DNA of 21,723 nucleotides from a virus. Made by a program: the position numbers and the translations under genes. The notes below the pieces were generated by a model, which was not told where the DNA came from, did no database searches, and saw only the letters and a program-made list of their open reading frames with translations. Numbering within the stretch: the stretch's first letter is position 1; each line of letters opens with the position of its first letter. Where the stretch lies: UHGV virus genome UHGV-1576676; one strand, 5' to 3'. Of the stretch, positions 17,809 to 20,068 are shown piece after piece.

Positions 17809-19595
17809 AAGAGCTGTGCTATGGATCTGTTTGCAGTGGAATTGAAGCCGCGAGTATTGCCTGGGAACCGTTGGGTATGCGTCCGGCGTGGTTTGCTGAA
17901 ATCGAGCCTTTTCCATCTGCCGTTCTTGCGCACCGCTGGCCCCATGTCGCCAACCTTGGCGACATGACAAAACTTGCCAAAAAAGTCCTGGCTGGGGAAA
18001 TCGAATCCCCTGATGTGCTCGTCGGGGGTACGCCTTGTCAGGCATTCAGTATCGCGGGCTTACGTGGTGGGCTTGATGATGAACGCGGCGCGCTAACTTT
18101 GAAGTATGTGGAGCTTGCAAATGCAATTGACGACAAACGGTCTGAGTCCTTCCTCAAACCGACAGTTATCGTCTGGGAAAATGTCCCAGGAGTCCTGTCA
18201 TCGGCAGATAACGCCTTCGGATGTTTCCTTGCCGGATTGGCTGGAGAAGATGCGCCATTTGAACCAGGTGATCGACCTGAATCAGGAAAAAGTAACGCGT
18301 TCTGGCGGTGGGATGGCAAAACCGGTTGCCATGCTCCAAAGTGGCCGCAGTGTGGTTGTATTTATGGACCGCAGCGAAAGGTGGCCTGGAGAATCCTTGA
18401 TGCCCAATACTTCGGAGTGGCACAACGACGCCGACGCGTGTTTGTTGTCGCAAGTGCTCGAACAGACCTCGATCCCGCAACGGTACTTTTTGAGTTCGAA
18501 GGCGTGCGCCGGAATATTGCGCCGAGCCGAAAAAAGAAGGAAATCGCTTCCGCCATTATTGCAAATGGCGCTGCAATCAGTGGCGAAAGCCTAAATCCAT
18601 GCCTACATGCTGACATGCCACCCGGTATGAAATCGACGAAAGCCGTAAACGCTTTCAGGATGGCAGCATTTGGGGAATATATTGACGATGAAACCGCATC
18701 GACAGTAAAGGCAAGAGATTTTAAAGATGCCACTGACCTTGCCGTTTTTAGCAGCACAGGAGCAGGTTTTTGGTCAGAAGGGCATGGTACATTGCGGGCA
18801 CGAGAGCAAGAAAGCCATGAGCATCTTGTTACATTGGCTTTTCCTGAGCGTATGAGCGGTACACAACATGCTGCAACTAAGAATACTTCACCATCTCTAA
18901 TGGCTAAAAATCCAACAGCTGTTTGCTATGAAGTAAGAAACGCAGAAGTAGCTGTCCGCCGTCTTACCCCTGTCGAATGTGAAAGGCTGCAAGGTTTTCC
19001 TGATGGGCATACGTTGATCCCGACGGAAAAGCGTAAAAAAGTTAATTCAGATGAACTGGCATATCTTCGCAATCACTATCCAGATTTAAGCGAAGAAGAG
19101 GCCGCGATGCTTGCAGCTGACGGACCGCGTTACAAAGCGATCGGCAATAGTATGGCAATACCAGTAATGCGCTGGATTGGCGATCGGATTACTAAGGCCG
19201 TATGTCGGCAGAAAGAAGGAAGTGAAACAAAAGAGCGAAAAGTTAAACCAGCGGCAGAATTCGAACGGTCCATATTCAAATGGGCTGGTGGAAAATTTGG
19301 TGTTCTGGAACAAATCTTTCGCTATTTGCCAGAAGGGAAGCGCCTGATCGAACCTTTTGTCGGTGGCGGAGCTGTCTTCACGAATGCCGGATACCAGGAA
19401 AATCTGCTAAATGATGTGAATGCTGACCTGATTAACTTTTACAAGACTCTGCAACGCGAGGCGCATTCACTTATCACACTGGCGCATCGTTTCTTCCAGG
19501 ACTACAACACACAGGAAGGATACCTGGCAGTACGGAATGCGTTTAACAAACAAGTCTATGATGATTTACATCGCGCAGCGGCGTTTTTGTCCTGA
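17805..19595 (+). CDS. dmt: Dmt, part 1: complete C5-cytosine methyltransferase domain fused to the N-terminal half of a Dam-like N6-adenine methyltransferase; ends at a frameshift
   Basis: GTG start overlapping the hrdC stop; C5-MTase motifs [11 protein letters not shown] and VIVWENVPG; Dam N-terminal motifs FKWAGGK and [10 protein letters not shown]; frame stops at ...HRAAAFLS* inside a T5 run. Confidence 0.8.
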
Positions 19596-20068
19596 ACCGA
19601 CATTGTTTTAACGGATTGACGCGTTACAACCAGGCCGGTGAGTTCAATGTCGGTTACGGGAAGTATAAAACTCCGTATTTCCCATTACAGGAGATGGAAG
19701 CCTTCCTCGGTGCGGAAGGGCGGTCTGAGTTTGTATGCGGTGATTTTGCAGCGGTGATTGAAGCTGCCGGAGAAGGAGATGTCATCTTTTGCGATCCGCC
19801 GTATGAACCGCTTCCAAATACAGAGGGATTCACGAACTATTCCGGTCATGACTTTAAGTTTGAAGAGCAAAAACGCCTGGTGTCTCTGTTGACGGATGCT
19901 CATCGTCGAGGTGCAAAGGTTCTCATTACTAACAGTGGCGCGCCAAACATCAGAGAGCTTTATCATGACAGTGGCTTCAGAGTGGAACCTCTTTTTGCCA
20001 GACGTTCTGTGTCTTGTAAGGGGGACACTCGAGGTGTAGCTCATGACGTTTTGGGTGTATTGCTCTAA
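19565..20068 (+). CDS. dmt: Dmt, part 2: remainder of the Dam-like domain (DPPY catalytic motif) in the -1 frame relative to part 1
   Basis: Frame reads ...[33 protein letters not shown]...CDPPYEPL..., collinear with E. coli Dam ([30 protein letters not shown]...CDPPY); overlaps part 1 by ~30 nt. Confidence 0.75.
   Translation, partial: FTSRSGVFVLNRHCFNGLTRYNQAGEFNVGYGKYKTPYFPLQEMEAFLGAEGRSEFVCGDFAAVIEAAGEGDVIFCDPPYEPLPNTEGFTNYSGHDFKFEEQKRLVSLLTDAHRRGAKVLITNSGAPNIRELYHDSGFRVEPLFARRSVSCKGDTRGVAHDVLGVLL

Follow-up and report, generated by a model that had tools for sequence, protein, structure and literature searches.

The DNA studied here, UHGV virus genome UHGV-1576676, is a stretch of 21,723 nucleotides (nt) that is referred to in its whole length as the window. 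It comes from a human gut metagenome and forms part of a P1-like (Punavirus) plasmid-prophage, and the gene of concern is dmt, which in P1 encodes a bifunctional C5-cytosine / N6-adenine (GATC) methyltransferase, Dmt (AAQ14041, positions 66412-68676 of AF234172). The window carries the c4/icd/ant immunity region, repL, structural genes 21-23, parAB, repA/oriR, the uhr-hrdC-dmt operon, and a region with tRNA genes and tciA, in this order. It is 97-99% identical to P1 (AF234172) and 99.2-99.3% identical to several E. coli plasmids across about 96% of its length. As in P1, dmt follows uhr and hrdC under the C1-controlled operator and promoter Odmt and Pdmt, and it specifies the same two Pfam domains in the same order. 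With the uhr-hrdC-dmt synteny kept and a DNA identity of 99.6% to P1 dmt, the identification of the gene as that of the P1 bifunctional methyltransferase, made in the initial annotation, is borne out. By descent the gene is P1 dmt, and it is present in the window as a disrupted allele.

The disruption is seen as a change of reading frame within the adenine methyltransferase (Dam) part of the gene. The first open reading frame (ORF1) ends with ...HRAAAFLS followed by a stop codon, and 592 of its 595 residues up to the break are identical to those of P1 Dmt. The −1 frame is open from position 19565 and reads on through the DPPY motif to the native stop codon. The C5-cytosine methylase family PF00145 matches ORF1 with an E-value of 9e-37, while the D12/Dam family PF02086 is divided, with profile positions 1-108 matched in ORF1 (E 2.5e-20) and positions 111-243 in the downstream frame (E 5.1e-29). 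In the intact P1 Dmt of 754 amino acids (aa), the whole D12 domain is unbroken; the window has no single frame that encodes the complete domain. Because the D12 match continues across two frames here and runs unbroken in P1 Dmt, the split is real and far beyond chance. A split caused by a 1-nt deficit, with a first product ending in HRAAAFLS, had been described in the initial annotation, and the ORF coordinates, the Pfam matches and the comparison with P1, which is one base longer at this place, all agree with it.

The same annotation had placed the deficit in the T5 homopolymer that precedes the break. While the deficit itself is confirmed, its location is not. In the base-by-base alignment, P1 reads GCG TTT TTG TTC CTG AAC (A F L F L N), i.e., T5-G-TT, whereas the window reads GCG TTT TTG TCC TGA (A F L S stop), i.e., T5-G-T. 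At position 19590 the relatives have TTTTTGTTCC and the window has TTTTTGTCC, and all 145 of the 145 fetched loci with the intact allele read TTTTTGTT, as compared to TTTTTGT in the window. Loss of a T from the T5 run of P1 would have yielded TTTTGTTCC; as this is not what the window carries, the placement of the deletion in the TT dinucleotide is unambiguous. The comparison of T-run lengths among P1-like genomes that had been proposed thus revealed no shortening, the run being T5 in P1, in all relatives examined and in the window, and the homopolymer-error reading was rejected on this ground. Adding one base does restore a protein of 754 aa, in line with the roughly 750 aa that had been predicted; however, the proposed repair (T6) would give AAFFVLNRH and miss the ancestral peptide, AAAFLFLNRH. 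A predicted hairpin has the deleted T at the base of its stem. Template switching at this quasi-palindrome was considered as the mutational mechanism and rejected after a by-eye check, as the opposite hairpin arm would template TTCCCGTAACC and not the change that is seen. The coordinates of these and the other features are listed in Table 1.

Table 1. Features of the dmt operon and its surroundings in the window.
Feature	Position	Strand	Basis
C1 operator Odmt, uhr-hrdC-dmt operon	16538-16554	+	exact match to annotated P1 feature, AF234172
Sigma-70 promoter Pdmt, uhr-hrdC-dmt operon	16554-16583	+	exact match to annotated P1 feature, AF234172
uhr, intact	16626..16910	+	tblastn, protein of the closest relative as query: 94 of 94 aa, 100% identical, single frame
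hrdC / rdgC homologue, intact; overlaps the dmt start	16903..17808	+	301/301 aa, 99.3% identity, single frame; Pfam RdgC
dmt ORF1, 596 aa: complete C5-cytosine methyltransferase domain and N-terminal part of Dam (D12), ending at the premature TGA	17805..19595	+	Pfam, P1 alignment
PCQ catalytic motif IV of the C5 domain (GGTPCQAFS), without intein	18033..18041	+	alignment
Dam motif I FVGGG (S-adenosylmethionine (AdoMet) binding), kept in ORF1	19356..19370	+	alignment to E. coli Dam 2g1p/4gbe
T5 run, of unchanged length relative to P1 and the relatives; the lesion is elsewhere	19584..19588	+	alignment
1-nt deletion, single T as compared to TT in relatives (GTTCC to GTCC), Dmt codon 596	19590	+	alignment to P1 and relatives
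Predicted stable hairpin, perfect 11-bp core 19595-19605 / 19646-19656	19590..19661	+	fold: dG -29.3 kcal/mol, z -2.7
Out-of-frame (-1) remainder of the Dam domain, including the DNA-contact-aligned stretch and DPPY	19592..20068	+	Pfam PF02086 111-243; aligns with E. coli Dam residues ~114-266
Premature TGA, product of the frameshift	19593..19595	+	window sequence
TTG, first possible restart codon in the downstream frame; GGA immediately adjacent, no usable spacer	19616..19618	+	sequence
ATG picked by gene callers for the 124-aa fragment; AGGAG abuts, zero spacing	19694..19696	+	gene calls
Catalytic DPPY	19793-19804	+	in the -1 frame
Native dmt stop	20066-20068	+	-1 frame
tRNA-Asn, intact	20741-20816
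tRNA-Thr, intact	20819-20894

The part of the enzyme that is lost can be judged from E. coli Dam (PDB 2g1p and 4gbe), a member of the D12-class alpha-group N6-adenine methyltransferases with which the P1 Dam domain aligns end to end (E about 9e-58). Both have FxGxG, NGLxRYN...G(R/K)YKxPYF and DPPY. Unlike E. coli Dam, the domain in the window is attached to a C5 methyltransferase, and it is broken at the equivalent of about residue 113 of E. coli Dam, which in the structure alignment is upstream of YNGLCRYN...GRYKKPYFP and of DPPY. The corresponding stretch, FNGLTRYN...GKYKTPYFP, presumably equivalent to the beta-hairpin that reads GATC in the EcoDam-DNA structure, is lost from ORF1 together with DPPY, both being encoded in the other frame. 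In an active D12-class GATC methyltransferase, a single polypeptide holds FxGxG, the DNA-contact stretch and DPPY; in the window these are divided between two reading frames. The C5 motifs PCQ, ENV, QRRRR and GNS are all intact in ORF1. Thus, the earlier claim that ORF1 keeps the C5 domain and lacks the DPPY half of Dam is upheld, as far as domain content is concerned, by Pfam, the motifs and the Dam alignment.

These results suggest the following sequence of events: codon 596 has lost one T of its TT dinucleotide; translation of the 754-aa bifunctional enzyme stops two codons further on, after 596 residues; the product comprises a complete C5 domain plus the AdoMet-binding N-terminal part of Dam, missing the DNA-contact-aligned stretch and DPPY; phage-encoded GATC adenine methylation is expected to be abolished, with C5-cytosine activity probably kept, both judged from domain content; methylation of the packaging site pac, and hence packaging, would depend wholly on host Dam; and the change would be near-neutral in ordinary dam+ Enterobacteriaceae. 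Most likely, the phage has to rely on the Dam enzyme of its host.

Such a dependence is consistent with what has been published on P1. Packaging requires GATC methylation at pac, so that it is only in Dam- hosts that dmt is essential (PMC12707154), and knock-down of dmt by CRISPR interference (CRISPRi) showed the gene to be non-essential on the dam+ strain BW25113 (PMC10695390). The loss would be tolerable in dam+ hosts, where the gene is non-essential, and the view taken in the initial annotation, that loss of dmt shifts the dependence of packaging to host Dam, is in agreement with both studies. The entries "dmt-A/dmt-B" in PMC10695390 were considered as a possible naturally split dmt, and this was rejected, as the guides were designed from NC_005856, in which dmt is a single gene. 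The extension of the same argument to replication from oriR was overstated and contributes nothing here. The five GATC sites of oriR are intact in the window (14224-14278). As dmt is a lytic gene repressed by C1 (PMC4713147), and as Odmt and Pdmt in the window are identical to those in P1, oriR replication in the lysogen should already be reliant on host Dam, whether dmt is intact or not.

We consider it quite likely that the window carries a genuine and recent loss-of-function frameshift in dmt of this gut plasmid-prophage. By its exact protein match the window corresponds to contig NODE_637 of the ENA assembly ERZ501839 (coverage 3.685758), and seven contigs, drawn from ENA, Logan and NCBI, encode exactly the same 596-aa product. 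TTTTTGT is the allele not only of ERZ501839 (the window) but also of contig k127_10481 of ERZ913488 (27.5 kb, run ERR209709) and of the Logan contigs ERR209709_3359 and ERR209708_10343. The deletion was thus assembled separately from two runs (ERR209708 and ERR209709, both of the human gut project PRJEB1220) by three pipelines. At two further positions, 15015 and 21678, the window has a base that is found neither in any relative nor in the ERR209709 assembly; the assemblies were therefore not copied from each other. At these two positions the window has G, and the relatives and the ERR209709 assembly have T and A, respectively; these substitutions may be low-coverage consensus errors or micro-variation between the runs. 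That a deletion within a run of just 2 nt came out alike from two runs and three pipelines is strong evidence that the mutation is real.

The remainder of the window was examined as well. Relative to its closest relative, NZ_CP138405.1, the window shows only three 1-nt indels in about 21 kb, two of which are outside dmt and intergenic, and the remaining indel alleles of the window are all shared with other loci. When the 24 coding sequences of NZ_CP138405.1 were tested on the window, 22 were full length in one frame, most with 98-100% aa identity (upfB, 91.6%); the two exceptions were dmt and a small ORF that a 140-bp deletion near position 4441, likewise shared, has shortened. A generally noisy assembly was rejected on these grounds, the indels being few, the others shared or intergenic, and 22 of the 24 coding sequences being full length.

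The age of the mutation was estimated from 57 full-length, colinear dmt sequences. In this alignment the deletion is the only column private to the window, with no private substitutions on either side. By this measure the mutation is recent, because it is the sole window-private change in dmt, and decay of the downstream half has not begun. An old, decaying pseudogene, for which private substitutions in dmt were looked for and not found, was rejected.

The allele is also rare. Queries of 41-42 nt were centred on the site, and every 28-mer seed was required to span it. For the window allele there was no match in 5,426 complete E. coli genomes and none in PLSDB plasmids, and exact-pattern searches of IMG/VR, GTDB species genomes and a metagenome collection gave 0 matches. 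The site-spanning query for the intact allele retrieved 468 E. coli records, and the intact allele was also present in 91 viral contigs, 2 species genomes and 45 metagenome contigs, giving more than 600 occurrences in all collections together. A variable-gap pattern, N{4,11}, detected only the 8-nt form among the 138 contigs (91 viral, 2 genome and 45 metagenome). The validity of the junction search was shown with a different indel of the window, near 4441, for which it retrieved 27 records. A recurrent or widespread allele was therefore rejected, there being no match in the E. coli genome, plasmid, viral, species genome and metagenome collections.

Several points weigh against a genuine, recent loss of function confined to the Dam half. 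The evidence consists of assembled contigs, not reads, and the coverage of the window contig is only about 3.7x. ERR209708 and ERR209709 are adjacent accessions of PRJEB1220, a longitudinal inflammatory bowel disease cohort, and may come from one person or one library; the literature search found no paper naming either run accession. The allele may be confined to a single bacterial population. In addition, the truncated half-domain at the C-terminus could destabilise the C5 part.

It was suggested initially that the frameshift could equally be a homopolymer assembly error. A sequencing or assembly artefact, with a true molecule having TT and an intact dmt, would be in keeping with the low coverage of the window contig (3.69), with the two private substitutions at 15015 and 21678 that have no counterpart in the other assembly and may be low-coverage errors, with an allele unique among more than 600 relatives, and with the evident dmt indel errors in some public P1-like records (ON470617 and ON470615). 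However, the deletion appears in separate assemblies of both runs from three pipelines; it affects a 2-nt run, not a long homopolymer; the window has no other unshared coding indel in its 21.7 kb; and the 45 other metagenome contigs have TT at the site, giving no sign of a systematic, site-specific error. These observations contradict the equal odds suggested at first, and we regard an artefact as unlikely. If the deletion is real, the frame might be restored during expression and a useful amount of full-length Dmt be made, either through −1 ribosomal frameshifting on G_UUU_UUG, with stimulation by the hairpin, or through transcriptional slippage on the T5 run. The −1 shift is the direction needed, UUU_UUG directly precedes the stop codon, and the perfect core of the stable hairpin begins 5 nt 3' of the motif. 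G_UUU_UUG is, however, not a canonical X_XXY_YYZ heptamer; motif and hairpin are also present in the intact relatives, where a shift would be harmful, and did not evolve for recoding; and the two-frame arrangement is conserved in none of the more than 600 relatives. Efficient transcriptional slippage requires a longer run than T5. Moreover, a U_UUG tetramer gave only 1.8- to 3.6-fold above a background of about 0.064% despite a strong pseudoknot stimulator (PMC4066793). Rescue of the frame is therefore extremely improbable in our estimate.

Re-assembly of the enzyme from two separately translated halves seems hardly more credible. The downstream piece would start at TTG 19616 or ATG 19694 and join ORF1 into an active Dam; the two pieces together hold every Dam motif, the break falls between the AdoMet-binding and catalytic parts, the stop codon is only 21 nt upstream of TTG 19616 so that termination and re-initiation are conceivable, and gene callers do predict the 124-aa ORF. 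Yet both candidate starts abut a purine-rich stretch that leaves no usable spacer, no promoter-like site was found between 19300 and 20300, the 124-aa product from the ATG is without the stretch that aligns to the DNA-contact region, and such an arrangement was seen only once and bears no mark of selection. Taken together, rescue by slippage and re-assembly of two Dam halves are both highly unlikely. Selected inactivation, e.g., to give an adaptive C5-only enzyme, or reversible phase variation has in its favor that the allele persisted long enough to be sampled in two runs and that the architecture of dmt is naturally variable in relatives (P7-type deletion variants and intein forms). Against it, the allele was found in one cohort only, no secondary changes have accumulated, and other frame changes in dmt are rare and scattered (L050 and L073); this explanation as a whole is given only a very small chance. 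Phase variation, as in a phasevarion, goes with a long repeat tract and length polymorphism. The site has only T5 and T2 runs and shows no length polymorphism in more than 600 relatives, and phase variation is excluded by the absence of both. A broader proposal, that the frameshift yields a natural C5-only methyltransferase, or a split Dam made of ORF1 and the TTG 19616 product, or that slippage of about 0.1% suffices, with some or altered methylation being kept and selected in gut E. coli, is very unlikely as well.

Damaged dmt alleles have been deposited before. In P1 c1-100 rev-6 (AF234173), dmt is annotated as incomplete, yet the record is a complete phage genome, which shows that dmt is dispensable and is consistent with the CRISPRi result. 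That allele, which belongs to a laboratory strain, has a larger gap in its interior (two matching pieces that cover 88% of the query), whereas the window has a 1-nt frameshift. In ON470617.2, ON470615.2 and the IMG/VR contigs L050 and L073, dmt is likewise split into several ORFs by 1-nt indels at other positions. The first two of these records (L002 and L003) have two separate 1-nt deletions each in dmt, annotated as 2-3 ORFs, and are probably due to uncorrected sequencing error; the lesion in the window, in comparison, is single and replicated across runs. Relative to P1 Dmt itself, the window is distinguished by the missing T at codon 596 with the Dam domain spread over two frames, and by a residue of the C5 domain that is described below.

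The gene and its two domains are already known, as is the fact that phage Dam can be dispensed with in dam+ hosts. What is new is this allele alone, and it is biologically ordinary. It represents one more sporadic inactivating dmt allele and carries little weight beyond this element. Nevertheless, three practical points may be made: as the lesion is in a TT dinucleotide and not in the T5 run, it should not be written off as homopolymer error in annotation; where runs and assemblers agree, this agreement can replace read pile-ups when frameshifts in metagenome contigs are judged; and any P1-like vector or transducing phage that descends from this lineage is predicted to fail in packaging in dam- hosts.

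Some further observations concern dmt and its relatives. The predicted hairpin lies inside the Dam coding region, its core being an 11-bp perfect inverted repeat (AACCGACATTG / CAATGTCGGTT) that is conserved in relatives; the relatives vary too little for a covariation test of it to be informative. In the C5 domain, codon 74 (window positions 18024-18026), within motif IV, specifies Gly (GGG) in 56 of the 57 full-length sequences, including the window, and Trp (TGG, "VWGTPCQ") in the reference laboratory P1 (L001, AF234172). The C5 domain of laboratory P1 may be atypical or impaired through Trp74, and this may bear on its C5 activity having been annotated merely as "perhaps". An in-frame intein of 341 aa interrupts the C5 domain of Dmt in 18 of about 105 fetched P1-like loci (e.g., L014, L029, L039, L063, L068 and L075; protein P0002, 1095 aa). 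Its junction, GGTP|CFTAGH...VVHN|CQAFS, is exactly before the catalytic Cys of PCQ, and it matches the Pfam families Hint_2, LAGLIDADG_3 and Intein_splicing.

Two other differences were noted outside the operon. Near position 4441, between repL and a hok-like gene, the window is without 140 bp that its closest relatives have, the deletion having taken place between two AGT microhomologies and removing the N-terminal 43 codons of an 81-aa hypothetical ORF. As this junction is common to 27 E. coli records, it is a natural polymorphism. Downstream of the tRNA-Thr gene, a short patch (20915-20967) is highly divergent from both P1 and L099.

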